A DNA stretch of 63,462 nucleotides, counting the filler, from Acidimicrobiia bacterium (GTDB lineage: Bacteria > Actinomycetota > Acidimicrobiia > Spongiisociales > SHLN01): assembly GCA_041619515.1 (NCBI GenBank). It is 3 parts of 3 records of this genome, joined end to end, with 100 filler letters (N's around TTAATTAATTAA, not from the genome) between each part and the next. Parts side by side here need not be neighbours in the genome. Positions count along the whole stretch, not along the records: positions 53,035 to 63,462 come from JBFKDW010000091.1; 2 more parts are not named here. One strand, 5' to 3'. Shown in pieces: positions 8,053-63,091 of the stretch; position 1 is the stretch's first letter; every line of letters starts with the position of its first letter. The notes below the pieces were generated by a model. It saw only the letters and a list, made by a program, of their open reading frames with translations. It searched no databases and was not told where the DNA came from. A program made the translations under genes and the position numbers.

Positions 8053-8053
8053 C

Positions 8054-9145: not shown

Positions 9146-9436
9146 TTACGAATGGTCGAGGCGGGCCGCCACCTCGAAGACCGTCCTGGCAGGTTCGGCA
9201 CCGGCTGCGCGGAACATGAGAACGCCCTCCGGCGTCTCGACCGACGCCAGGTATCCGTCGAGGGCTTCCCGGCTCTCCCACACGGTGACCATCTTCCACA
9301 TATCGGTGTCGGCAGCGCGGAGGAGGGACGATTCGATGATGAATGACGGCAGAGAACCGCCGGCAGCCTGGAACCGGCTGACGAGCCCGTCGGATTGGTC
9401 TTCCTCGACGGGCGCTTCGAGCATTGTGACAATCAT
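9146..9436 (-). CDS. ABM-like (antibiotic biosynthesis monooxygenase fold) small protein
   Basis: VTVWESREAL motif and AGGAGG RBS before ATG9436. Confidence 0.7.
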   Translation of the reverse strand: MIVTMLEAPVEEDQSDGLVSRFQAAGGSLPSFIIESSLLRAADTDMWKMVTVWESREALDGYLASVETPEGVLMFRAAGAEPARTVFEVAARLDHS

Positions 9437-9554
9437 GGTCGACCTCCTAACCAAGCCTTCCCGGGTGTGAGGCGAAGCCTACGCGTCACGCCCCACCGGC
9501 GGCTCGGCCACACCAAGGCTCTAGCATCGGTGGATCATCCTGAGGGGGCGTGCG

Positions 9555-10316: not shown

Positions 10317-10407
10317 GCGGCCGACAGCAACCGGCGAGGCCCGAGAGCTCCGAGGTGCCCTGACCGTCTGGGATCAAGCTTCTGTGCCAGCGGCCGATGG
10401 TTGCCGC

Positions 10408-11193
10408 ATGCGAGCGAGGTGTCTGATGGCGGCGCTGCTGATGGGCGCGTTCGGGCTCTCGGCGGCAGGCCCGGCCCAGGCAGCGGCTCCACTCGACTCG
10501 ATCGGGCTGGTGGATCCCACCAAAGGGGTCTGGTACCTGCGAACCGCCGGCGGCTCGGTGTGGAGCTTCTATTTCGGCGTTCCCGGGGATGTGCCCCTCG
10601 TGGGTGATTGGGACTGTGACGGCGTCGATACCCCGGGGATCTTCCGCCCCGCCACCGGCGCCGCCCACCTGCGCAACTCGGCATCAACCGGCGCCGCCGA
10701 TGTCGTGTTCTCGTTCGGTCTCCCCGGGGATGTCCCGCTGGCAGGCGACTGGGACGGCGACGGATGTGACACCCTCGGGGTGTATCGCAACGGACGGGTG
10801 TTCGTCCGCAACTCACTCGACACGGGCCCGGCCGACGCGTCGTTCTACTTCGGGGCGCCCGGCGATCGGCCCTTCGCCGGTGACTGGGACGGCGACGGGT
10901 CAGACGGCGTCGGGCTCTATCGGGAGGGCGCCTGGCGAGCGTACCTGCGACAGTCGCTCACCACCGGCCTCGCCGATTTCGAGTTCTACTACGGAACGGC
11001 CGGCGACCGGATCGTCGCCGGCGACTGGGACGGTGACGGTGACGACACCGTCGGCGTCTACCGCCGCTCCGCAGGCCGTTTCTACCTCTCCAACGAGAAC
11101 GGGCAACCGGTCGCCGACCTCGTCATCCCGTTCGGCGGTGGGGCGTTCACGCCGGTGGCCGGCGCCTTCTCCCCACCGGCACCGCCGGGCTGA
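10408..11193 (+). CDS. Secreted protein made of GDWDGDG (FG-GAP/VCBS-like) repeats
   Basis: Signal peptide ending AQA and four GDW(D)xDGxD repeats. Confidence 0.85.
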   Translation: MRARCLMAALLMGAFGLSAAGPAQAAAPLDSIGLVDPTKGVWYLRTAGGSVWSFYFGVPGDVPLVGDWDCDGVDTPGIFRPATGAAHLRNSASTGAADVVFSFGLPGDVPLAGDWDGDGCDTLGVYRNGRVFVRNSLDTGPADASFYFGAPGDRPFAGDWDGDGSDGVGLYREGAWRAYLRQSLTTGLADFEFYYGTAGDRIVAGDWDGDGDDTVGVYRRSAGRFYLSNENGQPVADLVIPFGGGAFTPVAGAFSPPAPPG

Positions 11194-11319
11194 GCACCGC
11201 CGGGCCAATGGACAGCCCCGGGCCGGGGCCACTAGCTTCCGGGGCGGGTGCTCCGCCGGCACGTCTCCGGCTGAAGCGACGAGGATCGCCCTGCGGCGTG
11301 ACGATTGGGAGGGACGCAG

Positions 11320-11808
11320 ATGCTGGAAACGACGCTGATCATCGCCACGCTCCTGTGTGGCCTCGTGGCCGGGCTCTTGTCCGGATTCGCAGTGGTGACC
11401 ATGCCCGGGATCAGATCCCTGCCCGACGGCGAGTTCATCAGGGCGTTTCAGGTGATGGACCGGATCATCCAGAACAACCAGCCGCTGTTCATGCTTGCCT
11501 GGATAGGGTCGGTGGTCGCCGTGGTGGCGTCGGCCGCCATCGGTCTCGCCGAGCTCGACGGCGTGGATCTCGGTCTGGTGCTGGCGGCGGCGGTCGTCTA
11601 CCTGATCGGGGTACAGGCCCCGACCGCGGTCGTGAACATTCCGCTCAACAACGCACTGCAGGAGGTGGACACCGGCGCGTCGGATGATCGACAGCTGGCG
11701 GCGGCGCGCGAGCGATTCGAGCGGCGCTGGAACACGTGGAATCGCATCCGATCCGCACTCGCCACCGTCACCACCGCGCTCCTGGCCATCCTGCTGCTGC
11801 GGCTGTGA
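11320..11808 (+). CDS. DUF1772 / anthrone oxygenase family membrane protein
   Basis: Four TM helices, VTMPG, NIPLNNAL, RWNTWNRIRS. Confidence 0.85.
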   Translation: MLETTLIIATLLCGLVAGLLSGFAVVTMPGIRSLPDGEFIRAFQVMDRIIQNNQPLFMLAWIGSVVAVVASAAIGLAELDGVDLGLVLAAAVVYLIGVQAPTAVVNIPLNNALQEVDTGASDDRQLAAARERFERRWNTWNRIRSALATVTTALLAILLLRL

Positions 11809-11832
11809 CTCCCCGGCCGGGTCGGCCACCGA

Positions 11833-13443
11833 TCAGGGCCCGGCGCCGATCTCGATCTCCCGGACCCTCGTCGTCCGCAACTCGCCGAACTCATCGCCGT
11901 CCCAGTAGGTCATGGTTCGCCACACCGTGACGGTGACGATCGGGCCGTTCCCCCGGTAGGGGTCCGGCCGGTAGGTCCACAACTGGGGAGGGGGCTGGAG
12001 GGCGCTCAGGGCGCCACGGTCGGGGTGGTCGTTCCAGTTCGAAACGAAGGTCGTCACGAAGCGGTCGAAGTCGGCCGCCCGCTCCTCGTCGAACAGAACG
12101 GTGCCGAGCTCCGCCTCCACCTGGAGAACCTCGGAGGCCGAGTCCGCATCGTAGAGCTCCTCGAGCAGGTCGCGGGTGCCGACCGCGCCCCAGTAATGGG
12201 GCAGCAGCTTGGTGTCCGCCGACAGATAATCGAACCCCGCCAGTGAGAACTGGTAGTCGAACGGGCGGAAGAAGCCGGGCGCCAGCTCGCCGGTCTGGCC
12301 GGAGGCGTCGGTGGCAACGAACCGGTAGGCGTAGGCGACGGGGGCGTCGAGCCATGCCAGGTTGACCGGCATGGACCACAGCGGCGCCGTCACCACCAGC
12401 CCGGTTCCGATGAGGGCATGAGACCATGTGAAGGTCGGCAGCGATGCGAGCAGCCGGTGGCGGAGCAGAAACGCAAGCAGCGCGACCTCCAGCACGATCC
12501 AGCGCCAGAAGAAGATGCCGGTGAGAGCCATCACGCCGAGGTGGAAGGCGATGAACAGGCCGAGCCAGCCGACGAGATTGCGACGGCTCCACAGGATGAA
12601 CACGGCGCCGAACTCGACGACCGCAGTTCCGATGAGCATCGGCCATGCCAGCGGCCGCAAGAAGCGGCCGACCGAGGAGACGGTGTCGGTCGAGAGCGAG
12701 CCCAGCCAGCCGTAGGCGTAGCTGCTGAACAGGTTCTTCTCGACGTGAGCGCCCACCTGCAGCCATCCCAGCCGGGCCTTGCCGACACCGGGAACCCAGT
12801 ACGCGCCGGCCACCAGGCAGACCAAGACGACGACAAAGTCGGCGTTGCGCCAGCGACCGACGATGAGGCGGATCACCATCAGCGCGATGAACAGCTCGAC
12901 GACCCGCACCAGCTGGTATTGCTCGGCGACCGAGTACCCGCCGATGGGATACTGAAACTGCTGGATGATCGTGGTCACGACCAGCAGCCACGGCACTGCG
13001 AAGACGGGACGCCACAGGGTGAGCGCGCCCAGGAGGATCAACACAAGCCGGTCGAACAGGTGGGCCCGATCGAGAAACAGGTTGTACTCGTAGGTCGAGA
13101 ACCACCAGGTCAGCAGGACGACGGCCGCGCCGACGGGCAGTCGGAACGACCATCCACGCTCGAATCCGGGCCAGCGCAGCCCGAACGATCCGGTGCGCCA
13201 GAGGGCTATTCCCCACAGGGCCAGAAGAACGGGGACGGCCAAGCCCAACCTGGTCATCGACTCGAGGATCAGGCTGGGCCGGGTGTAGCCGGCCTCGCCG
13301 AGATCCGTGATGCGAAGGACGATCTGGTCGATCACCACGAAGATGGCGACCAGGGCGCCGATCGGCCACCCGGTCGACCACAGGGCCTGGAGACCCCGTC
13401 CCGGCCGGTCACGCTGCGTGAGCTCTTGCGACGGCTCCGTCAC
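11833..13443 (-). CDS. Polytopic membrane protein, HTTM-like, with a soluble C-terminal domain
   Basis: About 10 TM segments, Y-W-x-P-G-x-G-K and F-H-x(7)-G-I-F-F-W patterns. Confidence 0.7.
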   Translation of the reverse strand: MTEPSQELTQRDRPGRGLQALWSTGWPIGALVAIFVVIDQIVLRITDLGEAGYTRPSLILESMTRLGLAVPVLLALWGIALWRTGSFGLRWPGFERGWSFRLPVGAAVVLLTWWFSTYEYNLFLDRAHLFDRLVLILLGALTLWRPVFAVPWLLVVTTIIQQFQYPIGGYSVAEQYQLVRVVELFIALMVIRLIVGRWRNADFVVVLVCLVAGAYWVPGVGKARLGWLQVGAHVEKNLFSSYAYGWLGSLSTDTVSSVGRFLRPLAWPMLIGTAVVEFGAVFILWSRRNLVGWLGLFIAFHLGVMALTGIFFWRWIVLEVALLAFLLRHRLLASLPTFTWSHALIGTGLVVTAPLWSMPVNLAWLDAPVAYAYRFVATDASGQTGELAPGFFRPFDYQFSLAGFDYLSADTKLLPHYWGAVGTRDLLEELYDADSASEVLQVEAELGTVLFDEERAADFDRFVTTFVSNWNDHPDRGALSALQPPPQLWTYRPDPYRGNGPIVTVTVWRTMTYWDGDEFGELRTTRVREIEIGAGP

Positions 13444-13710
13444 TGAGACCGCCGGCTCATCGGCAACGAGACGGCTGCAATCGGCGCTGCTGACCTTATC
13501 GAATCACCCCACTGTTCGACGGCGCCCGCGGCAGCCGTGTGCAATCAGTGTAGGAGAGGCCGGTCCGGCCGTGAGATGGGCAATTCGAGAAGGACGGAAT
13601 GGATTCGTGGCATGATCTCTACTCATGTGTGAGCCCTGCCGCCGACCAATCGACAACGGCGCCGGTGCCCCCCGCCCGCCCGAGACCGTGGAGCGGGACG
13701 ATTCGGGCGG

Positions 13711-26600: not shown

Positions 26601-26700
26601 NNNNNNNNNNNNNNNNNNNNNNNNNNNNNNNNNNNNNNNNNNNNTTAATTAATTAANNNNNNNNNNNNNNNNNNNNNNNNNNNNNNNNNNNNNNNNNNNN
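26601..26700. other. Artificial contig linker
   Basis: N runs flanking TTAATTAATTAA (stops in all six frames). Confidence 0.97.
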
Positions 26701-48893: not shown

Positions 48894-49673
48894 ATGCCGA
48901 CGGTGCAAGTGAACGGAAAAGAGCTCCACTTTGCAGAAGCAGGGGAGGGCCCGCTGGCCGTCTTGATCCACGGCTATCCGCTCGATCACACGCTGTGGTT
49001 GGAGCAGATCGCCGGCCTCTCCGACATCAGGCGGGTGGTGGCAGTCGATCTTCCCGGCTACGGGATGTCGGAGCGGGTCACCGGCGCCCCACTCACCATG
49101 GAGGCTCTCGCAAACGACGTGGCCGGCCTCATCCACGCGCTCGAATACGAGCAGGCCGATATCGTCGGGTTGTCGATGGGCGGATACGTGGCGCTGGCGA
49201 TGTGGGAGGAGTACCCGGCAGTCGTGCGTTCCCTAGCGCTCGTCAGCACCCGGGCCGGAGCGGACTCGGAGGAGGGCAGGGCCTCCCGGGAGACCCAGGC
49301 TCAGGCGGTCGTGGCCGAAGGTCGCGCCCCGCTTGCCGCCAAGCTGGTGACGGCGTTGCTCGCCCCTGCCCACGATCTCACGGCGGCTGCCCGCCTCCGG
49401 ACGATGGTCGAGTCGTCCCCGGTCGAGACGATCGTCGGATCGCTACGCGGCATGGCAAACCGGCCCGATCGCACCGAGCTGCTTGCGGCCATAGATGTCC
49501 CCACGCTCGTGATGGCGGGCGAGGAGGACACACTCATTCCGCCCCTCGACTCCCATGAGATGTCCTCGGCGATTCCCGGCTCAACCTTCCTCGTCATCCC
49601 GGGCGCCGGTCACCTCGGTCCCATCGAGCGCCCGGATGCGTTTACGGAAGCCCTCCGCAGCTTCTGGCAGTGA
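48894..49673 (+). CDS. Alpha/beta hydrolase (enol-lactone hydrolase-like)
   Basis: HGYP, DLPGYG, GLSMGG, GEED, AGH. Confidence 0.92.
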   Translation: MPTVQVNGKELHFAEAGEGPLAVLIHGYPLDHTLWLEQIAGLSDIRRVVAVDLPGYGMSERVTGAPLTMEALANDVAGLIHALEYEQADIVGLSMGGYVALAMWEEYPAVVRSLALVSTRAGADSEEGRASRETQAQAVVAEGRAPLAAKLVTALLAPAHDLTAAARLRTMVESSPVETIVGSLRGMANRPDRTELLAAIDVPTLVMAGEEDTLIPPLDSHEMSSAIPGSTFLVIPGAGHLGPIERPDAFTEALRSFWQ

Positions 49674-51749
49674 TTGGGGCCGTCCGTAGTCGGCAAGGCC
49701 GCCCTCCACGTGGCGTGGATAGCTGAGCGCAGTGCGGTCGTGAAAGGCGGCGACCATGCGACCCTGCGTCACGTCGACCCGGGCGAGCAGGGCACCACCC
49801 GCGACGAAGAGCACGGCCAGGCTCGCCACCGCCGGCCGGCTGTTGCCGAAGATGGCTACGGCGGCGGCGAAGAGCAGCGGCCCGATGATCGCTCCCAGCC
49901 GGGCGACGGCGGTGAAGAAGCCGAAGAACTCGCCGCTCTGTGAGGCCGGAGCGATGTTCGCATACAGGCTGCGGCTCAGTGCCTGGCTCCCGCCCTGGAC
50001 GATGGCAACTGCCCAGGCGAGGAACCAGAACTCGATGACCGTATCCAGGAAGTAGCCCCAGATGACGATGCCGGTGTACACACCGAGGGTGAAGAGGATC
50101 GTGCGCTTGGTGTCGAGCCGCTCTGCCAGTCTCTGAACCCGACCCCCGAACATGAGAGCGGCCACCAGTGAGGCGGCCAGCACGGCACCCAGCAAGCCCA
50201 GGATCACTCCGAGGTCGGCGGCCCGCACCGGCGGTGATACCTCGATCCGCCCGATGGCGATGACCGAGCCGATGGCGGCAGGGTCCCCGTCCGCCAGACT
50301 GATGAGGCTCAAGGTGTGGGTACCTTCCTCCCCGGCCTCGAACTCCTCCGGAACCTCGAAACGGACGGTGGGACGGAACGCATCGATCACGACCGGCTCA
50401 CCGTCCTCGAGCAGGGGAGCGCCGTCCAGGAGCACCTCCCAGGTCCCGTGGTCGGCGCCCTCCGAATGGGTGAGCCGTATGCGCTGGCCGTTGAATGGGA
50501 TGTCGATGCGGGATCCGGCGGTGCTCGCAGCCACGTAGTCCGAACGTGCTCCGGCCGGCAGCGCGTCTTTGCCGATGACCTGCCAGTCCCCGGTGCGGGT
50601 GAATGCGTCGGAGCCGGAGTCGTATTCGCCCTCACCGATGAAGGGCCCCACCGCTTCGAAAGGCGGATCGGGCCGGCCGACCGTGTCGCGGTCCAGCGTA
50701 TGGGCGGCGGCGATGCCGATGGCGGGCACCGCAATGATATTGACGGCCAGCAATGTCGCGATGCGTCCCCGCCGGCGCGACTGGGGGTCGGTTATGGCCC
50801 CGAACATGAGCGTGAACGGTGTGCCGACGAACTGTACGAGCACAAGCGCGCCGACGAGCTCCAGCGTCCCGAACCCGAGCTCGGAGCCGTAGACCACCGC
50901 CAGTGCGATCACGGTTCCGATGCCGTTGTCGTAGAGAAGGAATGCAAAGAGAAACTTGGTCAGCTCGCGGTAGGTGCGGATGCTGTTGAAGGTGGTGCGG
51001 AGACGGCCGAAACTGGTCCGCACCACCGAGGCGCCCCTGGCCAGCTTGGCGGCCGCCGCCGGTGGCTCGGGAAGACGGCGGAGGATGGGAATGGAGAACA
51101 CCGCCCACCACACGGCCACTGCGATGAACGACACCCGGACCCCGAGGTTGTCCTCGTCGGGAAGCAGCAGGATGAGAGCCACTGCGATCACCAGCAGAAT
51201 GCCGCCCCCGAGGTAGCCGTAGGCGTAGCCGCGGCTGGAGACCCGATCCTGATCCTCCTCGACCGCGACATGCGGCAGCAGGCTGTCGTAGAACACGTTG
51301 GCGAGACCGAAGCCGAGGCGGCCGACGATGAACAATGCCCCGGCGAGCTGCCAATCGCCGGTGCTGACGAAGAAGAGGCTCCCGGTGGCTCCGACTCCCA
51401 GCAGGGTGAAGAAGGCGAGGAGGTATTTCTTGCCCCGAACCACGTCGCTCATCGTTCCGACGACCGGAGCGAGCACGGCGACCAGAGCCAGGCTGATGGC
51501 GATGATGACCGCCCAGTAGGCGGCGGCGGTCGCCGGGCTGTCGAGGCTGGTGCCGGCTACATCGACGAAATAGGTGGGCAGCACGGCCGCCAGCACCACC
51601 ACGGCGAAGGCCGAGTTGGCCCAGTCGTACAGGGACCAGGCGCGCACCCTCCGGTTGTATTCAGCTCGCTTGAGCCCAGCAGTTCTCCGCCCCATGAGGC
51701 CCTTTAGGTCGGCTCCGTGTTCGGTGTCCACGTCACGCTCCGTGTCCAC
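49581..51749 (-). CDS. UMF1/Atg22-family MFS transporter with inserted TM-beta-sandwich-TM module
   Basis: WSLYDWANSAF, FYDSLLP, QGGSQALSRSLY, GEFFGFF; insertion of about 200 aa. Confidence 0.9.
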   Translation of the reverse strand: MDTERDVDTEHGADLKGLMGRRTAGLKRAEYNRRVRAWSLYDWANSAFAVVVLAAVLPTYFVDVAGTSLDSPATAAAYWAVIIAISLALVAVLAPVVGTMSDVVRGKKYLLAFFTLLGVGATGSLFFVSTGDWQLAGALFIVGRLGFGLANVFYDSLLPHVAVEEDQDRVSSRGYAYGYLGGGILLVIAVALILLLPDEDNLGVRVSFIAVAVWWAVFSIPILRRLPEPPAAAAKLARGASVVRTSFGRLRTTFNSIRTYRELTKFLFAFLLYDNGIGTVIALAVVYGSELGFGTLELVGALVLVQFVGTPFTLMFGAITDPQSRRRGRIATLLAVNIIAVPAIGIAAAHTLDRDTVGRPDPPFEAVGPFIGEGEYDSGSDAFTRTGDWQVIGKDALPAGARSDYVAASTAGSRIDIPFNGQRIRLTHSEGADHGTWEVLLDGAPLLEDGEPVVIDAFRPTVRFEVPEEFEAGEEGTHTLSLISLADGDPAAIGSVIAIGRIEVSPPVRAADLGVILGLLGAVLAASLVAALMFGGRVQRLAERLDTKRTILFTLGVYTGIVIWGYFLDTVIEFWFLAWAVAIVQGGSQALSRSLYANIAPASQSGEFFGFFTAVARLGAIIGPLLFAAAVAIFGNSRPAVASLAVLFVAGGALLARVDVTQGRMVAAFHDRTALSYPRHVEGGLADYGRPQSLPEAAEGFRKRIRALDGTEVTGARDDEEG

Positions 51750-51788: not shown

Positions 51789-52934
51789 TCAGCCGTCGAG
51801 GGATCCGGTGTCCGAGGCTCGCGCCACGCGGCGGCCCTCGTCGACGTCTACCCGGCGCAGCAGCAGGCCTCCCGCGATGAAGAACACGATGATGGCGAGC
51901 ACTGCCGGCCGGCTGGACCCGAAGGCCTGGACGGCCATGAAGAAGACGAGCGGTCCGATGAGGGCGGAGAATTTCGACATGATGGAGAAGAATCCGAAGA
52001 ACTCTCCGCTCTGGGAGGCGGGAGACATGGAGGCGTAGAGGCTGCGACTCAGCGCCTGACTGCCTCCCTGCACGGTCGCCACCATGAAGGCGAGGAACCA
52101 GAACTCGATGACGGCATTGAGGATGAAGCCCCACACTGCGATCACCGAATACACGAGCAGGGACAGGAGGATGGTGTGCTTGGTGTCGAACCGATCGACG
52201 AGGCCGCTCATGAGTCGCTTGCCGGGCCCGGCGGCAAAGCCGAGGCCGAGCAACTGGAGGGCAGCCAGCAGGCCGAGGATGGTCCCGAGGCTGGAGGTCC
52301 GGGTGGGGTCGAGCACCTCGATGCGGCCGACCGCCATGACGGTTCCACTCCGCTCCCGATCGAGGTTGCGGAGGTTGATGAGCACCAGCTCGTGTTCGCC
52401 GGGGCTTCCCACGTCGACTCGGGCTACCTCCTCGAATCGTTCGGTGCTGTTGTAGGCATCGATGGTGAGGCCGTCTTCGCCGGTCGGCTCGCTGATGTCG
52501 GGTGAGAAGCCGTCGATGGTGAAGCCGTCGATGTCGATCGGTTCCAAGCCGTCCACGAGCACTGCGTAGCTGGCTCCGTCGGGCCCGCTTCGATACGTGA
52601 TCTCGATCTCCCGCCCGGTGAAGAAGAACCTGAGCTGGGCGCCGGTTGAATCGGTGAAGGCGTAATCGCGGCGAGCGCCGGTGCCGAGCTCGTCCTCGGT
52701 TCGGAGCTCCCAGGCCCCGGTGGGAGGGAGCACTGCGAAGCTATCCAGCCCGTATTCGCCCTCGCCGAGAAACTGGCCCGAGGTCTCGAAGGGGGCTCCG
52801 GGCCGTCCGACGGTGTCGGCGTCGAGTACCCGGGCGCCGACGATGCCGACCAGCGGGAGCGCCAGCAGGTTGAACACGATGAAGGCGAGAAAGGCCCGCC
52901 GGCGTTCCTCAGTGGGATCGGGTATTCGCCCGAA
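51789..52934 (-). CDS. Tandem paralog of the insertion-bearing MFS transporter (5'-truncated at gap)
   Basis: Same insert and the QGGSQALSRSLY/GEFFGFF motifs; frame open to the gap. Confidence 0.9.
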   Translation of the reverse strand, partial: FGRIPDPTEERRRAFLAFIVFNLLALPLVGIVGARVLDADTVGRPGAPFETSGQFLGEGEYGLDSFAVLPPTGAWELRTEDELGTGARRDYAFTDSTGAQLRFFFTGREIEITYRSGPDGASYAVLVDGLEPIDIDGFTIDGFSPDISEPTGEDGLTIDAYNSTERFEEVARVDVGSPGEHELVLINLRNLDRERSGTVMAVGRIEVLDPTRTSSLGTILGLLAALQLLGLGFAAGPGKRLMSGLVDRFDTKHTILLSLLVYSVIAVWGFILNAVIEFWFLAFMVATVQGGSQALSRSLYASMSPASQSGEFFGFFSIMSKFSALIGPLVFFMAVQAFGSSRPAVLAIIVFFIAGGLLLRRVDVDEGRRVARASDTGSLDG

Positions 52935-53034
52935 NNNNNNNNNNNNNNNNNNNNNNNNNNNNNNNNNNNNNNNNNNNNTTAATTAATTAANNNNNNNNNN
53001 NNNNNNNNNNNNNNNNNNNNNNNNNNNNNNNNNN
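52935..53034. other. Artificial contig linker
   Basis: N runs flanking TTAATTAATTAA. Confidence 0.97.
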
Positions 53035-53109
53035 AGGCTCGCCGAACCAGGGGGTCGGGTCGGTGGCGGCGTCTCCCAGAGCCTGTAGGCAGCTCACTAG
53101 CCTCGCGGC

Positions 53110-54375
53110 ATGGATCATTTCGAGAATCTGACCGCCGACCGCCCTACGTTCGTCACACATCTGGAGTGCAGCGCGACCGGCACTCGCTACGAGCCGGACC
53201 GCTTGTACGGACTGTCGGAGGCGGGCAAGCCGCTGCTGGTGCGCTACGACCTGGACGGCATCGCCGCAGCCATCGACAAGGAAACCCTCGCAGCACGACC
53301 GCCGGACATGTGGCGCTACCGCGAGTTCCTCCCCGTCCGGTCGAGCGACAGCATCATCTCCCTGGGAGAAGTCATGACACCCCTGGTGCCGCTTGCCCAT
53401 ACCGAGCGGCGCACCGGGGCGACCTCGGTGATCGTGAAGGACGAATCGCGGCTCCCGACCGCCTCATTCAAGGCGCGGGGACTTGCCATGGCCGTTGCGA
53501 TGGCCAACGAGCTGGGGGTGAAGCGCCTGGCGATGCCGACCAACGGCAACGCGGGAGCCGCCCTCGCCGCCTATGGAAGCCGGGCCGGCATGGAGGTGTA
53601 CGTCTTCTGTCCGGCCGACACCCCTGAAGTCAACGTCCGGGAGATCGCTCTCCAGGGCGCCCAGGTGTGGCGGGTCAACGGGCTCATCAACGACTGCGGC
53701 AAGATCGTCGCCGGGGGGAAGGACGAGATGGACTGGTTCGACTTCTCCACGCTCAAGGAGCCCTACCGCATCGAGGGCAAGAAGACCATGGGGCTCGAGC
53801 TGGCCGAGCAGCTCGACTGGGATCTCCCTGACGTCATCTTCTATCCGACCGGAGGCGGCACCGGGATCATCGGCATGTGGAAGGCCTTCAACGAGCTGGA
53901 AGCGATGGGTTGGATCTCCAAGAAGCCGCGTATGGTGGCGGTCCAGGCCGAAGGGTGCGCCCCGATCGTGAAGGCGTACGACTCGGGAGCCGACCACGCC
54001 GAGCTGTGGCAGGACGCGGCCACCGTCGCCGCCGGAATACGCGTCCCGGCCGCCATCGGAGACTTCCTCATCCTCGAAGCGGTCCGGGAGAGCGGGGGCT
54101 TCGCAATCGCCGTATCCGACGAGTCGATCCTGGACGCGCAGGTGACGGCGGCCCAGCGCGACGGCGTGCTGATGAGCCCGGAGGGGGCGGCCACCATGGC
54201 TGGCTTCGAGCAGGCGCTGGCGACCGGCCGCATCGAGGCCGGCGAGCGGGTGCTGCTGTTCAATTGCGGACACGGGCTGAAATACCCGATGCCGCCCTCC
54301 GATCAGGCCCTCGACCACACCCGGCCGATCGACTATGCGGCTCTGGCTGCGGCCGCCCGGGGTTCGAGCATCTGA
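53110..54375 (+). CDS. Threonine synthase-family PLP enzyme (fold type II); context suggests sulfonate metabolism
   Basis: MWRY, PTASFKARG (PLP Lys), TNGNAG, EGKKT, PTGGGTG. Confidence 0.9.
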   Translation: MDHFENLTADRPTFVTHLECSATGTRYEPDRLYGLSEAGKPLLVRYDLDGIAAAIDKETLAARPPDMWRYREFLPVRSSDSIISLGEVMTPLVPLAHTERRTGATSVIVKDESRLPTASFKARGLAMAVAMANELGVKRLAMPTNGNAGAALAAYGSRAGMEVYVFCPADTPEVNVREIALQGAQVWRVNGLINDCGKIVAGGKDEMDWFDFSTLKEPYRIEGKKTMGLELAEQLDWDLPDVIFYPTGGGTGIIGMWKAFNELEAMGWISKKPRMVAVQAEGCAPIVKAYDSGADHAELWQDAATVAAGIRVPAAIGDFLILEAVRESGGFAIAVSDESILDAQVTAAQRDGVLMSPEGAATMAGFEQALATGRIEAGERVLLFNCGHGLKYPMPPSDQALDHTRPIDYAALAAAARGSSI

Positions 54376-54376
54376 C

Positions 54377-55309
54377 GTGGCCGAGATCGTGATCACCGAG
54401 TTCATGGACGAGGACGGAGTGGCGGCACTGGCCGCCGACTTCGACGTCCACTACGACCCCGGCCTGGTCGACGACCCGGCAAAAGTGGTAAGCCTGCTGG
54501 CCGCAGCCCGGGCCCTCGTCGTCCGCAACCGCACGCAGGTCGGCCTCGACCTCCTGGAGGCCGCCCCCCATCTGGAGGTCGTGGGACGGCTCGGAGTGGG
54601 GCTCGACAACATCGACGTCGACGCCTGCCGTGAGCGGGGAGTGGCGGTGCGAGCGGCGGGGGCAGCCAACGCCAACGCCGTGGCCGAGTACGTGATCGGG
54701 GCCGCCCTCAGCCTGGTCCGGCCGGCTCTTCGACAATCCGGTCGGGTGATTGCCGGGGAGTGGCCTCGCCAGGAGCTCGTGGGGGCGGAACTTGCCGGAC
54801 GGCGGCTCGGCCTGATCGGCCTCGGAGCCATTGCCCGCCTGGTGGCACGCAAGGCTGCCGCGCTCGAGATGGTGGTCACCGCCCACGACCCGGTGCTCGA
54901 TCCCTCCGATCCGGCCTGGCAGCTGGCGGAGCGAAGCGACCTGGCCGCCCTGCTTGCCGGAGCCGATGTCATCAGCCTTCACGTTCCGCTTCTCGAATCC
55001 ACCCGGTACCTGATCGACGCCCCAGCCGTTGCCGCGATGAAGGACGACGCGGTGCTCATCAACACCGCGCGGGGCGGGATCGTCGACGAAGAGGCGGTTC
55101 TCGCGGCGCTGCGGGCTGGCACCCTGGGCGGGGCCGCCCTCGACGTGTTCGAAACCGAACCGGTCGGCCCCGATCAACACGCCCGGTTTGCCGGCGTACC
55201 CAATCTGATCCTGACTCCGCACATTGCCGGGCTCACCGAGGAGGCGCAGCGGCGGGTGGGCGAGGTCACCGTCGAGAACGTGCGCACCGTGCTGGCAGGG
55301 GGACACTGA
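54377..55309 (+). CDS. slcC: D-2-hydroxyacid dehydrogenase, (S)-sulfolactate dehydrogenase-like
   Basis: ITEFMD, VRNRT, GRLGVGLDNID, AGEWPRQ, NTARG, TPHIAG. The N-terminal motifs match my recollection of SlcC. Confidence 0.75.
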   Translation: MAEIVITEFMDEDGVAALAADFDVHYDPGLVDDPAKVVSLLAAARALVVRNRTQVGLDLLEAAPHLEVVGRLGVGLDNIDVDACRERGVAVRAAGAANANAVAEYVIGAALSLVRPALRQSGRVIAGEWPRQELVGAELAGRRLGLIGLGAIARLVARKAAALEMVVTAHDPVLDPSDPAWQLAERSDLAALLAGADVISLHVPLLESTRYLIDAPAVAAMKDDAVLINTARGGIVDEEAVLAALRAGTLGGAALDVFETEPVGPDQHARFAGVPNLILTPHIAGLTEEAQRRVGEVTVENVRTVLAGGH

Positions 55310-56208
55310 TGGCGACCGTCGTGTGCGTCGGCATCGCCGTGCTCGACTTGTTGTTCCAGATGGATGAGCTGCCGGCCGGTGGCGGCAAGTATTACGCCAC
55401 CGGGTATCGGGAAGTGGGTGGTGGCGTCGCCGCCAACGCCGCGGTGGCGGTTGCCGCCCTCGGTGGAAACTCCCGCTATGTCGGACGGGTCGGGGCCGAC
55501 CCCGTTGGGTCCCGAATCGTCGCCGGCCTCGCCGCCAGTCACGTCGACGTGAGCGGCGTCGAGATCCGCCGCGGCGTCGGCTCCCCGCTGTCGGCTGTGC
55601 TGGTCGACGCGGCGGGGGAGCGGATCATCATCAACCACACGAGTGACGACCTATTCGCCGGAGACGACCCGGGAACCGCCGGTGACATTGAGGGTGCCGA
55701 CGCAGTGCTCGTCGATGTGCGCTGGCCGGTGGGGGCGGTGACGGCCTTGCAGGCCGCGGCGAGTGTCGGCATCCCCGCAGTGTTCGACTTCGACCGTCCG
55801 ATGGCCGACGGAGGGGCGAATCTGCTCGACCGGGCTACCCATGTCGTGTGCTCGCAAGCTGCGCTGGCGGCGACGACCGGGACCGACGATCCCGAAGCGG
55901 GCTTGCGGGAGCTTGGGGAAAGAACGACCGCGTGGCTGGCGGTGACCGCTGGAGGCGCCGGCATGTGGTGGCTCGACGGGGGCGACGTCCATCATCTCCC
56001 GGCATTTCCGGTGGATGTGGTCGACACCGTCGGCGCCGGCGACGTCTTCCACGGCGCGTTCGCGCTGGCCCTGGCCGAGGGAAGTGCCGCTCCCGAGGCG
56101 GCGCGCTTCGCCTCAGCCGCCGCCGCCCTCAAGTGCTCCCGACCCGGGGGCCGGGAAGGGACACCAGGACGCCACGAGGTCGAAGCGCTCCTGAAGGGCC
56201 GGGGCTGA
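55309..56208 (+). CDS. PfkB kinase, sulfofructose kinase (YihV)-like
   Basis: VVCVGIAVLD, GGGVAANAA, DVRW, DTVGAGDVFHGAFA, AALKC; TGATG coupling. Confidence 0.85.
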   Translation: MATVVCVGIAVLDLLFQMDELPAGGGKYYATGYREVGGGVAANAAVAVAALGGNSRYVGRVGADPVGSRIVAGLAASHVDVSGVEIRRGVGSPLSAVLVDAAGERIIINHTSDDLFAGDDPGTAGDIEGADAVLVDVRWPVGAVTALQAAASVGIPAVFDFDRPMADGGANLLDRATHVVCSQAALAATTGTDDPEAGLRELGERTTAWLAVTAGGAGMWWLDGGDVHHLPAFPVDVVDTVGAGDVFHGAFALALAEGSAAPEAARFASAAAALKCSRPGGREGTPGRHEVEALLKGRG

Positions 56209-57248
56209 TGGAGGCCGGCAAGCTGTGGGGAATGCGGCGCTTGGCCGATGCGGCGGGACGGTTCAAGATGCTGGCGGTTGATCAGCGCCCGCCGATCGAG
56301 AACCTGATCGCCGAACGACGCGGCCTGGATTCGGCACCCTACGAGGATGTATGCGCCTTCAAGGCGCTGCTCGTCGAAGAGCTGGCTCCGCTCGCCTCCG
56401 CCTCGCTGCTCGATCCCCATTTTGCGTATCCGGCAGCCGTGCACCTGGTCCCTCCTTCCGGCGGCCTGCTGTTGACGCTGGAGGACTCCATCTTCGAGGA
56501 CACGGCGGAGGGGCGGCGGTCATCCGAGATCGACAACTGGAGCGTCGAGCAGATAAAACGCGCCGGCGGAGACGCCGTCAAAGTGCTCGCCTGGTACCGG
56601 CCCGACGCCGGTGAGGGGGTGCGGGAGCATCAGCACGAGCTCGTACAACGCATCGGCGACGCCTGCCGTCGTTACGACCTGCCCTTTGTTTTCGAGCTGC
56701 TGGTCTACCCCTTCCTCGGTCGGCCCGCGCATACCGTCGACTATGTCGAAGACGTCGCCAAGCGAGCAGAGGACGTCGTGGCCAGCGTCGAAGCCTTCGC
56801 CGGTCCCGAATACGGCGTCGACCTCTTCAAGCTCGAGAGCCCACTCCCGGCCCCGGCGGTGCCCGACCGGGCAGCCGACGACGGCTCCGTCCAGGCGGCC
56901 TTCGACGCTGTGGGCAGGGCAGCCGGGCGGCCGTGGGTGATGCTGTCGGCCGGAGCCACCAAGGAGGCATTCGGCCGGGTGCTCGAGTATGCCTACGCGG
57001 CCGGCGCCAGCGGATACCTGGCCGGCCGGGCCATCTGGTGGGATGCCTGCCAGGTGTTCCCGGACCTGGAGGCCATGCGGGGCCGCCTGAAGGTGGAGTC
57101 GGTCCCGTACATGGAGCAGCTCAATCGGCTGACAGATGCCGCCGCCATCCCCTGGACCGAGCAGGCCGGCGTGCTCGGCACTCCAACGCTGGACCGAGCC
57201 GGGCCTGGTTTCCGGGCGGGATACGCCGGATTTGGGAGCGGCCGATGA
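56208..57248 (+). CDS. Class I tagatose-bisphosphate/sulfofructosephosphate aldolase (LacD/YihT family)
   Basis: MLAVDQR, LLDP, DAVK, DLFKLE, WVMLSAG, GYLAGRAIW. Confidence 0.88.
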   Translation: MEAGKLWGMRRLADAAGRFKMLAVDQRPPIENLIAERRGLDSAPYEDVCAFKALLVEELAPLASASLLDPHFAYPAAVHLVPPSGGLLLTLEDSIFEDTAEGRRSSEIDNWSVEQIKRAGGDAVKVLAWYRPDAGEGVREHQHELVQRIGDACRRYDLPFVFELLVYPFLGRPAHTVDYVEDVAKRAEDVVASVEAFAGPEYGVDLFKLESPLPAPAVPDRAADDGSVQAAFDAVGRAAGRPWVMLSAGATKEAFGRVLEYAYAAGASGYLAGRAIWWDACQVFPDLEAMRGRLKVESVPYMEQLNRLTDAAAIPWTEQAGVLGTPTLDRAGPGFRAGYAGFGSGR

Positions 57249-58651
57249 CGGTCGGTGCCATCGCCCTGGGCCGCCCCACCTTCGACGTCGATTACGCCGA
57301 GACGGTGGCGGAAGCCGGCTTCGGTGTCCTGTCCGAGATTGCCCCCGGCTTCGTCGGCGGCCGTGATGTGTTGTTCGACGCAGCCAGCACGGCTCAGGCG
57401 ATCCGTGACCTCGAGTCGGCCGATCTGTCTGCTCTGGTCGTGCTGCAGGTGACGTTCACGGACGCAACGATGACCAGGGAGCTGGCTGCCGCCATCGAGG
57501 CCCCCCTGATCCTGTGGGCCTTCCCGGAGGATCGGACCGGCGAGCGGCTCCGGCTCAACGCCCTGTGCGGCATCAACCTGGCCGCCCATGCGCTGAGGAG
57601 GATGGGCCGGGACTTCTCGTACCTGTACCTGCGGGCCGATGACCGCCGCGCTCCGGCCGAGTTGCAGCGGCTGCTCGCAGGAGGTGTGAACCTCGATTCG
57701 GCGGTCCGCATCATCCCGGGTGCCGATGAGCTCTCCAGCAGCGCGGTGGAGGCCGCCGAACGGGTCGAGGAAGCGCTCGACGGGCTTCGCACCGGCCTGG
57801 TGGGTGATTACCCCGATGGGTTCGATCCGTGCCGCTACGACGCCGAAGTCGTCAAGCAACTCACCGGGGTGACGGTCGATCGCATCGAGCTGGCCGACCT
57901 GTTTGCCGCCGCCGATCGCACCGACGCCGCAACCCTCATCGAGACCCGGGCGAGGGCCGAGGTGGCCCTCGGCCCGCTCGACGGTTTCGATCAGGAAGCA
58001 CTCGATCACAGCCTCAGGATCTACGGCGGATTGCGTGATCTGGCCGCCGCCCGGGAATGGTCGGGGGTGGCTACCCGCTGCTGGCCGGAGTGCTTCACCG
58101 AGTACGGAGGGGCAGCGTGCGCTCCGCAGGCCATGCTCACCGATGACGGTGTTCCCGGCATGTGTGAGGCCGACGTCTACGGCAACCTCACCAGCCTCAT
58201 TCTGCAGGAGCTGGCAGGGGAGGCTCCGTTTGTGGCGGATCTGGTCGATATCGACACCGCCGACGGAAGCGGGGTCTTCTGGCATTGCGGCCTGGCTCCC
58301 CTCAGCATGGCGGACCCCGCCTCCGACGTGACCGCCGCGGTGCACTCCAATCGGCGGATGCCGCTGCTCCACGAGTTCCCGCTCAAGCCGGGACGGGTCA
58401 CCATTGCCAGGCTCAGCCAGGCAGGTGATGTCCACAAGCTGGTCGTGGGCGGCGGTGAGATGCTGGCCGAGCCGCTGCCGTTCTCTGGGACGGCAGGCAC
58501 GGTGAGGTTCGACAAGCCGGCGGCCGACGTCCTGGCGACGATAATGACCGAAGGCCTCGAGCACCATTACGGCCTGGTCTACGGCGAGTACGAGGAGGAG
58601 CTCCTCGCCCTTGCCGCCCGCTGGGACCTGCCCATTGTGAGCCTGACCTAG
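57245..58651 (+). CDS. L-fucose/L-arabinose isomerase-family protein (candidate sulfoquinovose isomerase, SqvD/SftI-like)
   Basis: RLNALCG, RCWPE, CEADVYG, WHCG, KPGRVT-x-ARL, GLEHH; ATGA coupling. Confidence 0.82.
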   Translation: MTVGAIALGRPTFDVDYAETVAEAGFGVLSEIAPGFVGGRDVLFDAASTAQAIRDLESADLSALVVLQVTFTDATMTRELAAAIEAPLILWAFPEDRTGERLRLNALCGINLAAHALRRMGRDFSYLYLRADDRRAPAELQRLLAGGVNLDSAVRIIPGADELSSSAVEAAERVEEALDGLRTGLVGDYPDGFDPCRYDAEVVKQLTGVTVDRIELADLFAAADRTDAATLIETRARAEVALGPLDGFDQEALDHSLRIYGGLRDLAAAREWSGVATRCWPECFTEYGGAACAPQAMLTDDGVPGMCEADVYGNLTSLILQELAGEAPFVADLVDIDTADGSGVFWHCGLAPLSMADPASDVTAAVHSNRRMPLLHEFPLKPGRVTIARLSQAGDVHKLVVGGGEMLAEPLPFSGTAGTVRFDKPAADVLATIMTEGLEHHYGLVYGEYEEELLALAARWDLPIVSLT

Positions 58652-58691
58652 TGCCGCCGGTGTGGCAGGACTCCCGCGAAAGGAACCACTG

Positions 58692-59801
58692 GTGACCGAG
58701 CAGATACGGTACGGAATCATCGGTGCCGGCATCATGGGCATCGAACACATCCAGAACGTGAACAACCTGGAAGACGCCCGGGTGGTAGCGATCGCCGATC
58801 CCGCCGAGAGCTCGCGAGCCTGGGGGACGGCCGAGTCGGCCGGTGAGGTTGAGCTCTTCGAGGACTATCGGGATCTGCTGGCAGCGGATCTGGTCGATGC
58901 CGTCGTGGTTGCCACCCCCAACATGACCCACGCCGACGTCATGGCCGACGTGCTCGAGGTCGACGGGCTCCACGTCATGGTCGAGAAGCCGCTGGCAACC
59001 TCGGTCGCCGACTGCCGCCGGATCATCTCGGCGGCTGAAGGGCGCACGGGCGTCGTCTGGGTCGGCCTGGAGTACCGCTACATGCCGGCGGCGGCGCGTC
59101 TCCTCACTGAGGTGGCGGAGGGAGCGGCCGGCAGGGTTCGGCAGGTGGCGATTCGAGAGCACCGCTTCCCGTTCCTACCCAAGATCGGGGACTGGAACCG
59201 CTTCAATCGCAACACCGGCGGGACCATGGTCGAGAAGTGCTGCCATTTCTTCGACCTCATGAACCTGATCACCCGAGCTCAGCCGGTCAGGGTCATGGCA
59301 AGTGGGGGCCAGGACTTCAACCACCTCGACGAGGTGTACGAGGGAGAGGTGCCCGATATTCTCGATGCCGCTCTCGTGATCTTCGAGTACGAGAACGGAG
59401 CCAGAGCGATGCTCGATTTGTGCATGTACGCCGAGGCGACGAAGCATCAGGAGGAGATCGCAGTTGTCGGCGATGCCGGCAAAGTTGAGGCTCTCACTCC
59501 CGGCCCGGTGCTGCGTGGCGGCGATCCGCGCCAGATCGTGCGAGTCGGCAACCGCGCTCGCTCGACCGTCGAGGAATTCGAGGTCACCGACGAGCGGATC
59601 CGATGGCAGGGCGGGCACCACGGAGCCAGCTACATCGAGCACCTCGAGTTCATCAATGCCATCCGGACCGGAACCCCCGCCGTGGTGGGTCTCGAGGAAG
59701 GCTTGCTGTCGGTAGCGATGGGGATCGCTGCCCAACACGCCATCGCCGAGCGGCGGGTCGTGGAGATGGAAGAAGTGCTCGGGCTCCGGGATCGCGTGTA
59801 G
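58692..59801 (+). CDS. sqgA: Gfo/Idh/MocA-fold enzyme, NAD+-dependent sulfoquinovosidase (GH188)-like
   Basis: EKP, LEYRY, EHRFPFLPK, WNRF, EKCCHFFDL, HHGASY. Confidence 0.75.
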   Translation: MTEQIRYGIIGAGIMGIEHIQNVNNLEDARVVAIADPAESSRAWGTAESAGEVELFEDYRDLLAADLVDAVVVATPNMTHADVMADVLEVDGLHVMVEKPLATSVADCRRIISAAEGRTGVVWVGLEYRYMPAAARLLTEVAEGAAGRVRQVAIREHRFPFLPKIGDWNRFNRNTGGTMVEKCCHFFDLMNLITRAQPVRVMASGGQDFNHLDEVYEGEVPDILDAALVIFEYENGARAMLDLCMYAEATKHQEEIAVVGDAGKVEALTPGPVLRGGDPRQIVRVGNRARSTVEEFEVTDERIRWQGGHHGASYIEHLEFINAIRTGTPAVVGLEEGLLSVAMGIAAQHAIAERRVVEMEEVLGLRDRV

Positions 59802-60974: not shown

Positions 60975-61514
60975 GTGGATGGTCTCGCGGTCGACGCGAG
61001 GGTTGGAACGGCCGGGCTCGACCGGGGCGCCCTCGTCGCAACGCTCTTTCGACAGGAGGGGGTTGCACTGGTCCGCCTGGCGCGATTCTTCACCGACGAC
61101 CGGAACGCCGCAGAAGATCTCGTGCAGGAGGCCTTCGTCAGGCTGTACCGGTCGGCCCACCGAATCGAAGATCCAGAAAAGGCCGCGCCGTACTTGCGGT
61201 CGATCCTGCTCAACTTGGCCCGCGACCACAATCGGCGGGGGTTGATGTCGCTGCGCCACGTCGAGGCTATGGCTCCCTCGGAGCCCCCGGCTGCTGCCGA
61301 CGACCAGATGGTTCTCGACGAGCAAAAGGCGGAGGTGGTGGCGGCTCTCGAATCACTCCCGATCCGCCAGCGCGACTGCCTGTTGCTGCGCTTCTACTTC
61401 GACCTGAGCGAGCGCGACATCGGTGCCACCCTCGACATCTCACCGAACTCGGTCAAGACCCACTGCCGGCGCGGGATGGCATCGCTGCGCAAGATCCTGG
61501 GAGAGCAACCATGA
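60975..61514 (+). CDS. ECF RNA polymerase sigma factor
   Basis: AEDLVQEAF (region 2); LP-x-RQR...DLSE...SVKTH (region 4). Confidence 0.93.
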   Translation: MDGLAVDARVGTAGLDRGALVATLFRQEGVALVRLARFFTDDRNAAEDLVQEAFVRLYRSAHRIEDPEKAAPYLRSILLNLARDHNRRGLMSLRHVEAMAPSEPPAAADDQMVLDEQKAEVVAALESLPIRQRDCLLLRFYFDLSERDIGATLDISPNSVKTHCRRGMASLRKILGEQP

Positions 61515-62311: not shown

Positions 62312-63091
62312 GTGCGCCATTGCTTTGTCGTGAGGGTCTTCACCATTTCCGGGTCCGGAGGAAATGCGCTCGGTGTGATCCCCGATGCGACCGATCTCGA
62401 TGCCGGCGATATGCAGCGAATTGCCCACGAGCTCGGGTATTCCGAGACCGTCTTCATCGATTGGCCCGCCGGTGGCGTGCCCGGGCTGCGGATCTTCACC
62501 CCTGCCACCGAGCTGCCCTTCGCAGGACATCCGCTGGTGGGGACCGCCTGGGTGCTCAACCACATGGGCCCCGGCGTCGACCGTATGTCGATCCAGATCG
62601 GTGAGGTCGGGGTGCGCCTCTCGCGGGACATGGTGTGGGTGGCGCCGCCTGCCATCGAACTGCCGGTTCGAGAAGCCGGAGTCGACGAGGCGGACCCGCT
62701 CGGGATCACGGCGAGCCGGGCGTGGCGAGTCGAGGTTCCTTCCGACTATCTCGTCCTCGAGGTGGCATCCGAGGCCGATCTCAACGACGCCGCCCCCGAT
62801 CTAACTGCCGTGGCTTCCTCCGCAGACGGCGTCTACCTCGTCACGGGCGACGATCCCGTCCGTTCCCGGTTCTTCGCCCCCCGGATGGGAGTAGCCGAAG
62901 ATCCGGCGACCGGGTCGGCGGCGGTGGGGCTGAGCGCCGTCCGGCGAGCGCTCGGCACCCAATCGGGAACGTTACGCATTCTGCAGGGTCTTCCGGAGGC
63001 CCTCTCTGAGATTCGCGTCGTGTGGGACGGCTCAGCGGTGGAGCTGGGCGGGGCGGTGGTCAGAGACGAGGTACGTCTGCTGGACGATTGA
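62312..63091 (+). CDS. PhzF family isomerase/epimerase
   Basis: GN-x-L-G-V, SETVF, FTP-x-x-ELPFAGHP, EDPATGSA. Confidence 0.92.
   Translation: MRHCFVVRVFTISGSGGNALGVIPDATDLDAGDMQRIAHELGYSETVFIDWPAGGVPGLRIFTPATELPFAGHPLVGTAWVLNHMGPGVDRMSIQIGEVGVRLSRDMVWVAPPAIELPVREAGVDEADPLGITASRAWRVEVPSDYLVLEVASEADLNDAAPDLTAVASSADGVYLVTGDDPVRSRFFAPRMGVAEDPATGSAAVGLSAVRRALGTQSGTLRILQGLPEALSEIRVVWDGSAVELGGAVVRDEVRLLDD

Follow-up and report, generated by a model that had tools for sequence, protein, structure and literature searches.

A threonine synthase-like enzyme beside the sulfoquinovose genes of an acidimicrobial genome, a candidate L-cysteate sulfo-lyase

The locus

The window analysed here is a stretch of 63,462 nucleotides from an Acidimicrobiia bacterium (assembly GCA_041619515.1), in which three contigs of one metagenome-assembled genome (MAG) are joined end to end, namely C39 (26,600 bp), C40 (26,234 bp) and C91 (10,428 bp). 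The source genome consists of 146 contigs and is 95.65% complete. Our subject is a gene on C91 for an enzyme related to threonine synthase (ThrC) and dependent on pyridoxal 5′-phosphate (PLP), hereafter called ThrCL (protein P0001). It is the first of six co-directional genes on this contig, the others encoding a 2-hydroxyacid dehydrogenase (HADH), a PfkB kinase, an aldolase, an isomerase and an SqgA-type protein (Table 1). ThrCL is considered here as a candidate L-cysteate sulfo-lyase, which together with HADH may extend the breakdown of sulfoquinovose beyond sulfolactate.

The two leading genes are tightly packed. The first-pass annotation had described a fold-type II PLP enzyme 1 nt before an SlcC-like dehydrogenase, and this arrangement was confirmed: ThrCL matches PF00291 with 223.8 bits, and its stop codon TGA (54373-54375) is separated by one base from the GTG at 54377. 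HADH could alternatively start at an in-frame ATG (54335), and in relatives the spacing between the two genes ranges from -4 to +96 nt.

The four genes that follow are, by family, those of the sulfoglycolytic Embden-Meyerhof-Parnas pathway of the second type (sulfo-EMP2), with an SftI/SqiI-type isomerase, a PfkB kinase, a LacD-type aldolase and a sulfoquinovosidase, their predicted substrates being those of the respective families. The aldolase matches NF009498 with 338.7 bits (cut-off 184) and PDB entry 8TNF with 342 bits. The isomerase reaches 285.9 bits against NF048012, under the cut-off of 700, and is hence referred to as isomerase-like only. The GFO/IDH/MocA protein matches the SqgA structures of Arthrobacter (8QC3; 338 bits, E 4.6e-100) and Flavobacterium (8QC2; 326 bits). 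Taken together with the gene set, these matches make the locus a sulfo-EMP2-type cluster like that of Arthrobacter, preceded by two additional genes.

Table 1. Features of the window and of related loci (positions count along the window unless a locus is named; G006 and G003 are genomes of relatives).
Feature	Position	Strand	Length (aa)	Family, assignment and remarks
ThrCL (P0001), ThrC-like PLP enzyme	53110..54375	+	421	PF00291, NF006050; candidate L-cysteate sulfo-lyase
HADH, short SerA-clade D-2-hydroxyacid dehydrogenase	54377..55309	+	310	PF02826/PF00389; no ACT domain; candidate SlcC-like enzyme
PfkB-family sugar kinase	55309..56208	+	299	PF00294; candidate sulfofructose kinase; ATG shares 1 nt with the preceding stop
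LacD/DeoC-type class I aldolase	56208..57248	+	346	candidate sulfofructose-1-phosphate aldolase; 1-nt overlap
SftI-like sulfoquinovose isomerase	57245..58651	+	468	NF048012; ATGA overlap with the aldolase stop
GFO/IDH/MocA protein	58662..59801	+	379	SqgA-type NAD-dependent sulfoquinovosidase (GH188), by similarity; 10 nt after the isomerase stop
Upstream gene in relatives (P0122/P0123)	L037:5669-6613 (G006), L039:8962-9894 (G003)			no Pfam family
Artificial joints	26601-26700 and 52935-53034			runs of N around the TTAATTAATTAA linker; C39/C40 and C40/C91

ThrCL had been taken for the first gene of the operon, which proved to be unsupported. C91 begins at 53035, so that only 75 bp precede the ATG of ThrCL at 53110. 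In the nearest relatives with longer contigs (G006 and G003), ThrCL is preceded on its own strand, at a distance of 69-106 nt, by a conserved gene of 310-314 aa with which the operon may in fact begin. The ortholog of this gene in the source genome (78% identical) sits at the end of another contig (C131:2740-3675). No exact overlap of 11-60 nt was found between the ends of C131 and C91; judged by synteny, the two contigs are likely to be adjacent. In G036, a genome of a different family, ThrCL does lead the operon, divergent from an operon for an ATP-binding cassette transporter. The genes of the window left of 53035, for example those for ATG22-like transporters, are uninformative on the ThrCL locus because they are on another contig.

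A separate threonine synthase

A search of the genome for a separate thrC had been proposed as a check on the enzyme, and it gave a clear answer. On contig C77, hom is directly followed by a gene for a class II ThrC of 468 aa (TIGR00260, 238.4 bits against a cut-off of 167.1), with rho nearby, and thrB, for homoserine kinase, is on C80. ThrCL is thus redundant for threonine synthesis, and the gene at 53110-54375 is not the threonine synthase of this cell. The 13 other genomes of this family all encode a canonical class II ThrC as well, and all five genomes examined from other phyla (Pseudohongiella, two Opitutales, Gimesia and Parasphingorhabdus) have a thrC of 217-271 bits beside a ThrCL of 152-176 bits. 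The absence of hom and thrB near ThrCL, pointed out earlier, holds for C91; it carries little weight because this contig is only 10.4 kb long.

Family, motifs and fold of ThrCL

The family models for threonine synthase give a mixed result for ThrCL. P0001 scores 633.6 bits against NF006050 (PRK08197, 'threonine synthase'; cut-off 303), 158.3 bits against TIGR00260 (under its cut-off), and 59.1 bits against the cysteate synthase model TIGR03844, far under the cut-off of 324.9. Its top NCBIfam matches are all threonine synthase models, and no model for 1-aminocyclopropane-1-carboxylate (ACC) deaminase or D-cysteine desulfhydrase is among the best 25 of its 32 matches. Among solved structures, short bacterial threonine synthases come closest (~30-34% identity, phmmer E 6e-46 to 4e-42). 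An AlphaFold2 model of P0001 has a mean predicted local distance difference test score of 91.3, and a Foldseek search with it places threonine synthases at E ~1e-27 with target-normalised template modelling (TM) scores of 0.84-0.86. Foldseek also lists 9K3C, with the entry title 'CapA2 from Alistipes finegoldii', at TM 0.80; a literature search for CapA2 found no paper naming it. In the ESM Atlas, ThrCL retrieved only clusters of 'putative threonine synthase'.

The signature motifs give a different picture. The Schiff-base lysine, Lys121 in SFKARG, corresponds in the alignment to Lys61 of the Thermus threonine synthase. The threonine synthases of Aquifex, Thermus and Mycobacterium tuberculosis, compared residue by residue as the three solved enzymes, and a canonical class I ThrC of G036 (locus L126) share STGNT, NSxNPxR, GNAGN and TGxGLKDP. 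In P0001 these are replaced by TNGNA, STLKEPYR, GGGTG and NCGHGLKYP, respectively, and only the arginine of the second motif is retained; the corresponding segments are TNGNAG (144-149), STLKEPYR (213-220), GGGTG (248-252) and FNCG (384-387). The FNCG that the first-pass annotation had noted in place of the usual TG was borne out, since LLFNCGHGLKYP near the C-terminus pairs with TGxGLKDP in the alignment to the three solved enzymes. At this position, serine and threonine dehydratases typically have Cys or Ser. In the Thermus structures, the motifs of ThrC hold the substrate by its carboxylate and phosphate, and PLP by its phosphate and ring nitrogen.

These replacements are fixed in a well-defined group. 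In an alignment of 110 ThrC-like sequences from related loci, all 84 distinct members of the ThrCL clade (FastTree support 99; 66-100% identical to P0001) have [PA]TNGNAG, STL[KR]EPYR, PTGGGTG and LFNC[GA]xGLKY.

Outside this clade, Acidimicrobiia have three deeper tiers of proteins annotated as threonine synthase (L022-L027, L031-L036 and L117-L125). Their identity to P0001 is 52-55%, 42-48% and 35-37%, and the signature motifs of ThrC are varied in a different way in each tier. The 42-48% tier includes L032 and L033 from genomes flagged as unpublished (G028 and G017), on which the statements about the ThrCL clade do not depend.

The partner dehydrogenase

By analogy with SlcC, HADH is a candidate (S)-sulfolactate dehydrogenase. 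Among 2-hydroxyacid dehydrogenases, SlcC falls within the SerA clade or next to it as a sister group, according to the text of a published phylogeny (PMC6303947). The best NCBIfam model for HADH is the phosphoglycerate dehydrogenase (PGDH) model TIGR01327, with 267.6 bits, under the cut-off of 454, and its best structural match is the phosphoglycerate dehydrogenase of PDB entry 1WWK (199 bits). The source genome has a second SerA-like gene, a long open frame on contig C42.

Distribution of ThrCL and its gene neighbourhoods

ThrCL is 66-87% identical across Acidimicrobiia, Planctomycetota (Gimesia, Fuerstiella, Blastopirellula and Pirellulaceae), Verrucomicrobiota (Opitutales and Akkermansiaceae) and Proteobacteria (Sphingomonadaceae and, among Gammaproteobacteria, Pseudohongiella and SAR86). 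A homologue search from ThrCL returned at least 8000 proteins at E<=1e-20. In its own class ThrCL is rare: among 151 evenly sampled genomes with a completeness of 80% or more, it was found in three and the isomerase in five, while two genomes have both, in each case adjacent. This patchy and yet conserved occurrence is what one would expect of an accessory gene that spreads horizontally and is strongly constrained, rather than of a housekeeping enzyme. On the ThrCL tree, the sulfoquinovose-linked members are scattered over actinobacterial, planctomycete and verrucomicrobial sub-clades, so that the link is not a single inherited accident; the linkage requires 11 changes on the tree, against a mean of 18.6 when shuffled.

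Whether homologues are associated with sulfonate genes had been named as a check on the proposed function, and the ThrCL/HADH pair was indeed found to recur with such genes across four phyla. The six-gene block from ThrCL to SqgA, in the order seen on C91, is kept in G006 and G003, in part in G001, where the contig ends, and also in G036, whose ThrCL is 70% identical. Neighbourhoods were surveyed at 80 related loci, with genes called by an imperfect heuristic based on open reading frames (ORFs) and GC content at third codon positions; it missed the dehydrogenase of L071, which tblastn and Pfam recovered. HADH lies directly downstream of ThrCL at 24 of the 80 loci, and sulfoglycolysis-type genes lie within about three genes of ThrCL at 17. 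Eight loci have sulfo-EMP2 genes (L037, L038, L039, L041, L053, L054, L056 and L066), and six (L042, L074, L075, L091, L099 and L107) have a 220-aa FSA-type transaldolase (TAL_FSA), an SftI-like isomerase, or both, which are the hallmarks of the pathway known as sulfo-transaldolase (sulfo-TAL). The order aldehyde dehydrogenase, transaldolase, ThrCL is found at L049 and L051, and the order aldehyde dehydrogenase, ThrCL, HADH at L071.

Genes for the handling of sulfite accompany the pair in other lineages. At eight Gimesia-type loci, ThrCL and HADH are preceded by a gene for a major facilitator superfamily (MFS) transporter and followed by a second MFS gene and TauE (PF01925), an order established by Pfam on L045 and by blastp clustering for the other seven. 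Locus L091, on an Opitutaceae chromosome (5888-13466), encodes a SorA-like sulfite dehydrogenase, a ROK regulator, an SftI-like isomerase, ThrCL, HADH and a YeiH-family exporter, and holds the most complete predicted 'sulfoquinovose to sulfate' gene set among the loci analysed. Its SorA-like protein (Oxidored_molyb and Mo-co_dimer) scores 226.6 bits, under the cut-off, and its exporter is a putative sulfate exporter. YeiH-family genes are also present at L074 and L107.

Four further HADH loci have other neighbours (L040, L084, L115 and L096). At two of these, from Pirellulaceae/Planctomycetota (L084:3170-8825 and L115:7782-13321), an Amidohydro_2 gene and a gene for a 7-bladed lactonase precede ThrCL and HADH, with sulfatases nearby; a GFO/IDH/MocA gene follows HADH at L115, and the contig of L084 stops inside HADH. 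This arrangement may reflect a different and so far undescribed sulfosugar or sugar-acid route that feeds the ThrCL-HADH module.

Some loci depart from the pattern in other ways. At L041:10001-12429, on a 700-kb contig of an Acidimicrobiales MAG, ThrCL is followed by a short remnant of HADH (52% by tblastn), the PfkB kinase and then unrelated genes, and this cluster looks decayed. In G027, a 46%-identical homologue is convergent to an operon of HADH, kinase, aldolase, isomerase and SqgA. In G004, of the same genus and 94% complete, ThrCL is broken across contig ends (L028/L029; C11:1-546 and C18:1-807). About 4.4 kb after it lies a PhzF gene, as on C91; the five sulfoquinovose genes are not there and no isomerase was found in this genome. 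G004 and C91 thus share ThrCL and PhzF only, which is compatible with an insertion as well as with a deletion of the sulfoquinovose genes.

Proposed route and its alternatives

In the proposed route, the sulfo-EMP2 enzymes would, by their gene families, convert sulfoquinovose into dihydroxyacetone phosphate and sulfolactaldehyde, and an aldehyde dehydrogenase would oxidise the latter to (S)-sulfolactate. Aldehyde dehydrogenases of the succinate semialdehyde dehydrogenase type are clustered with ThrCL in other lineages (L051, L056, L071 and L075). In the source genome the candidate for this step is on contig C2, where it is 59% identical to the clustered enzyme of L056; its neighbours there are genes for branched-chain amino-acid transporters, a LacI regulator and RidA instead of sulfonate genes. 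HADH would then form 3-sulfopyruvate, as SlcC does, and some housekeeping aminotransferase would yield L-cysteate. The core of the proposal is the last step, in which ThrCL would eliminate sulfite from L-cysteate and leave a PLP-aminoacrylate, to be released as pyruvate and ammonia; in a variant, water would add back and serine would be the product. The sulfite would be exported (TauE, YeiH family) or oxidised (SorA-like) by products of the genes clustered in other lineages; the TauE-family and Oxidored_molyb genes of the source genome are generic and unlinked to the ThrCL locus. A racemase would be unnecessary because an enzyme of the ThrC type is expected to take the L-isomer delivered by transamination.

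None of the known desulfonation routes competes for the substrate in this genome, since no gene of their kinds was found in it. There is no match to PF04412, presumably the SuyB family, and no Xsc above the cut-off (best 340 against 676). Six of the eight PALP-family matches include no CuyA-type protein, and the other two are ThrCL and the canonical ThrC.

The conversion of sulfolactate through sulfopyruvate and L-cysteate into pyruvate, ammonia and sulfite by way of ThrCL is the best-supported reading of these data, and we give it about an even chance of being correct. As part of that explanation, ThrCL and HADH would be a two-gene add-on to sulfoglycolysis, a view drawn from gene content and protein families. 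A wider claim is held more tentatively, at a little short of an even chance: the pair may be a portable cassette for sulfolactate mineralisation, attached repeatedly to sulfo-EMP2 and sulfo-transaldolase pathways in marine Acidimicrobiia, Planctomycetota and Verrucomicrobiota, with ThrCL recruited from threonine synthase as an L-cysteate lyase that works without a racemase.

Several observations weigh against the lyase reading. More than half of the loci surveyed (51 of 80, several of them on very short contigs) have neither HADH nor a sulfonate gene nearby, and these include a clade of 33 gammaproteobacterial loci with mostly one shared neighbourhood of genes for amidohydrolases, peptidase M13, cytochrome b561 and glutathione S-transferase. 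Such stand-alone copies would need a substrate from a source other than HADH. No isomerase was found in five genomes with ThrCL orthologs of 72-84% identity (G004, G007, G009, G011 and G018; completeness 72-97%), and sulfoquinovose clusters occur without ThrCL in G013, G027, G072 and G132. The gaps in the pathway that had been pointed out near ThrCL, a sulfolactaldehyde dehydrogenase and an aminotransferase, were confirmed: C91 carries neither, nor a sulfite exporter, and the Pfam-annotated neighbours in related loci include no aminotransferase or other route from sulfopyruvate to an amino acid except a truncated gene of the ornithine-cyclodeaminase/alanine-dehydrogenase family upstream at L042, which was seen at no other locus compared. 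Furthermore, P0001 lies above the cut-off of an equivalog named threonine synthase (NF006050), and related genomes are non-independent observations. A Bilophila protein annotated as threonine synthase, which may or may not belong to the ThrCL clade, is stated in the text of the CuyA study to be inactive as a sulfo-lyase on cysteate (from data that the study does not show; PMC11193023).

Three other explanations have to be set against these data. That ThrCL is an ordinary or back-up threonine synthase paralog, whose sulfonate neighbourhood has no functional meaning, would agree with the NF006050 score, with the closest solved structures being threonine synthases (E 1e-46 by sequence), and with the many family members in unrelated neighbourhoods. 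We consider it very improbable, since every genome checked also encodes a canonical ThrC, all four signature motifs of ThrC have changed and then stayed constant across four phyla, ThrCL occurs only rarely and patchily in its own class (3 of 151 genomes), and it is tied to the same dehydrogenase and to two sulfoglycolysis pathways in separate clades of the tree. The enzyme could also run in the direction of a cysteate synthase and join sulfite to O-phosphoserine, in which case HADH would be a real PGDH that feeds 3-phosphoglycerate into the supply of O-phosphoserine, and sulfite would be trapped or assimilated. The best family and structural matches of HADH, TIGR01327 and 1WWK, are phosphoglycerate dehydrogenases, as this would require, and cysteate synthase is itself a ThrC homologue to which P0001 has a weak match (TIGR03844, 59.1 bits); the Foldseek match to 9K3C may point the same way, and TauE and SorA neighbours suit any role in sulfite handling. 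The cysteate synthase route likewise requires an unclustered aminotransferase. Against it, the TIGR03844 score is far under its cut-off, the ThrC motifs that hold the substrate phosphate are all replaced, sulfo-EMP2 and sulfo-TAL clusters themselves release no sulfite, the clustered aldehyde dehydrogenases yield sulfolactate, the natural substrate of an SlcC-like enzyme, and another SerA-like gene exists on C42. This explanation is therefore distinctly unlikely.

The third explanation is a PLP enzyme for some other sulfonate reaction, acting on another amino-sulfonate, catalysing a beta-replacement such as the hydrolytic desulfonation of cysteate to serine, or using a common marine metabolite. 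It has the same context evidence in its favour, and a common marine substrate would account for the stand-alone gammaproteobacterial copies: 51 of 80 loci are without HADH, so that ThrCL appears to be useful without the dehydrogenase. The chemistry of threonine synthase, moreover, ends with the addition of water. On the other hand, nothing points to a specific alternative substrate, and the order aldehyde dehydrogenase, ThrCL, HADH best suits the series sulfolactaldehyde, sulfolactate, sulfopyruvate. Such a reaction is regarded as rather unlikely.

Relation to known systems

Short bacterial threonine synthases (EC 4.2.3.1; 2ZSJ, 1UIM/1V7C, 2D1F and 6CGQ/6NMX) have the fold and the context of the Schiff-base lysine in common with ThrCL. 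ThrCL differs from them by about 60 extra N-terminal residues and the four altered motifs, it is not beside hom or thrB, and a separate canonical ThrC is always present in the genomes checked. The methanogen cysteate synthase (TIGR03844) is derived from ThrC and handles the pair of cysteate and sulfite, which shows that the scaffold is capable of such chemistry; the direction proposed for ThrCL is the opposite, and its context is catabolic rather than the biosynthesis of coenzyme M. In a Roseovarius study, a branch of sulfolactate metabolism reportedly passes through sulfopyruvate and cysteate, and so resembles the route proposed here.

The net reaction proposed for ThrCL, from cysteate to pyruvate, ammonia and sulfite, is identical to that of the cysteate sulfo-lyase CuyA, and both enzymes belong to the PF00291 superfamily. 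CuyA is a member of the branch of ACC deaminase and D-cysteine desulfhydrase, whereas ThrCL belongs to a different branch of fold type II. According to the text of its description, CuyA prefers D-cysteate and needs the racemase CuyB (PMC11193023). In Paracoccus wurundjeri, as described in the text of the report, mineralisation of sulfolactate by SlcC/ComC-SuyAB is coupled to the breakdown of a sulfosugar, sulfofucose (PMC12421959). The likeness lies in a C3-sulfonate module with an SlcC-type dehydrogenase that is bolted onto sulfoglycolysis, so that one organism frees sulfite; there, however, the non-PLP lyase SuyAB cuts the C-S bond once SlcC and ComC have racemised the substrate, whereas a PLP enzyme is found in the position of the lyase here.

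The closest known gene cluster is the sulfo-EMP2 cluster with SqgA of Arthrobacter sp. AK01, which in the text of its report has an isomerase, a PfkB kinase, a class I aldolase and SqgA as on C91 (PMC10755693). This strain is reported there to produce only sulfolactate. The word 'synthase' is absent from the main text of the same paper. More widely, the openly accessible full texts searched do not describe an enzyme of the ThrC type in clusters for sulfoquinovose or sulfolactate.

The current picture of sulfoquinovose degradation is a relay, in which primary degraders excrete sulfolactate or 2,3-dihydroxypropane-1-sulfonate and other bacteria free the sulfite. The text of a 2026 review treats complete catabolism of sulfoquinovose by a single organism as undemonstrated outside oxygenolytic routes (PMC13436972). 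If the route through ThrCL operates, a single cell would mineralise sulfoquinovose completely, non-oxygenolytically and without excretion of sulfolactate, and the assignment of sulfur and carbon fluxes from metagenomes would change for common marine lineages. ThrCL would then represent a new family of PLP-dependent C-S lyases, though with a reaction already known, and sulfoglycolysis would have a new and portable means of completion. Metagenome annotation at present labels the genes of ThrCL and HADH 'threonine synthase' and 'phosphoglycerate dehydrogenase', so that a widespread misannotation would be corrected as well.

Other features of the window

On C91, the six-gene block is followed by genes for an extracytoplasmic function (ECF) sigma factor (60975-61514) and a PhzF-family protein (62312-63091), both outside the sulfoquinovose cluster. 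A search of sequencing runs for the stretch gave six DNA runs and no RNA run; those with more than a trace of it are five marine metagenomes and one soil metagenome, from three studies. On C40, two ORFs for ATG22/MFS-type transporters adjoin each other on the minus strand (49581-51749, 722 aa, and 51789-52877, 362 aa). The second matches the ATG22 profile in its C-terminal part only and may be a duplicated or split gene, unrelated to ThrCL.

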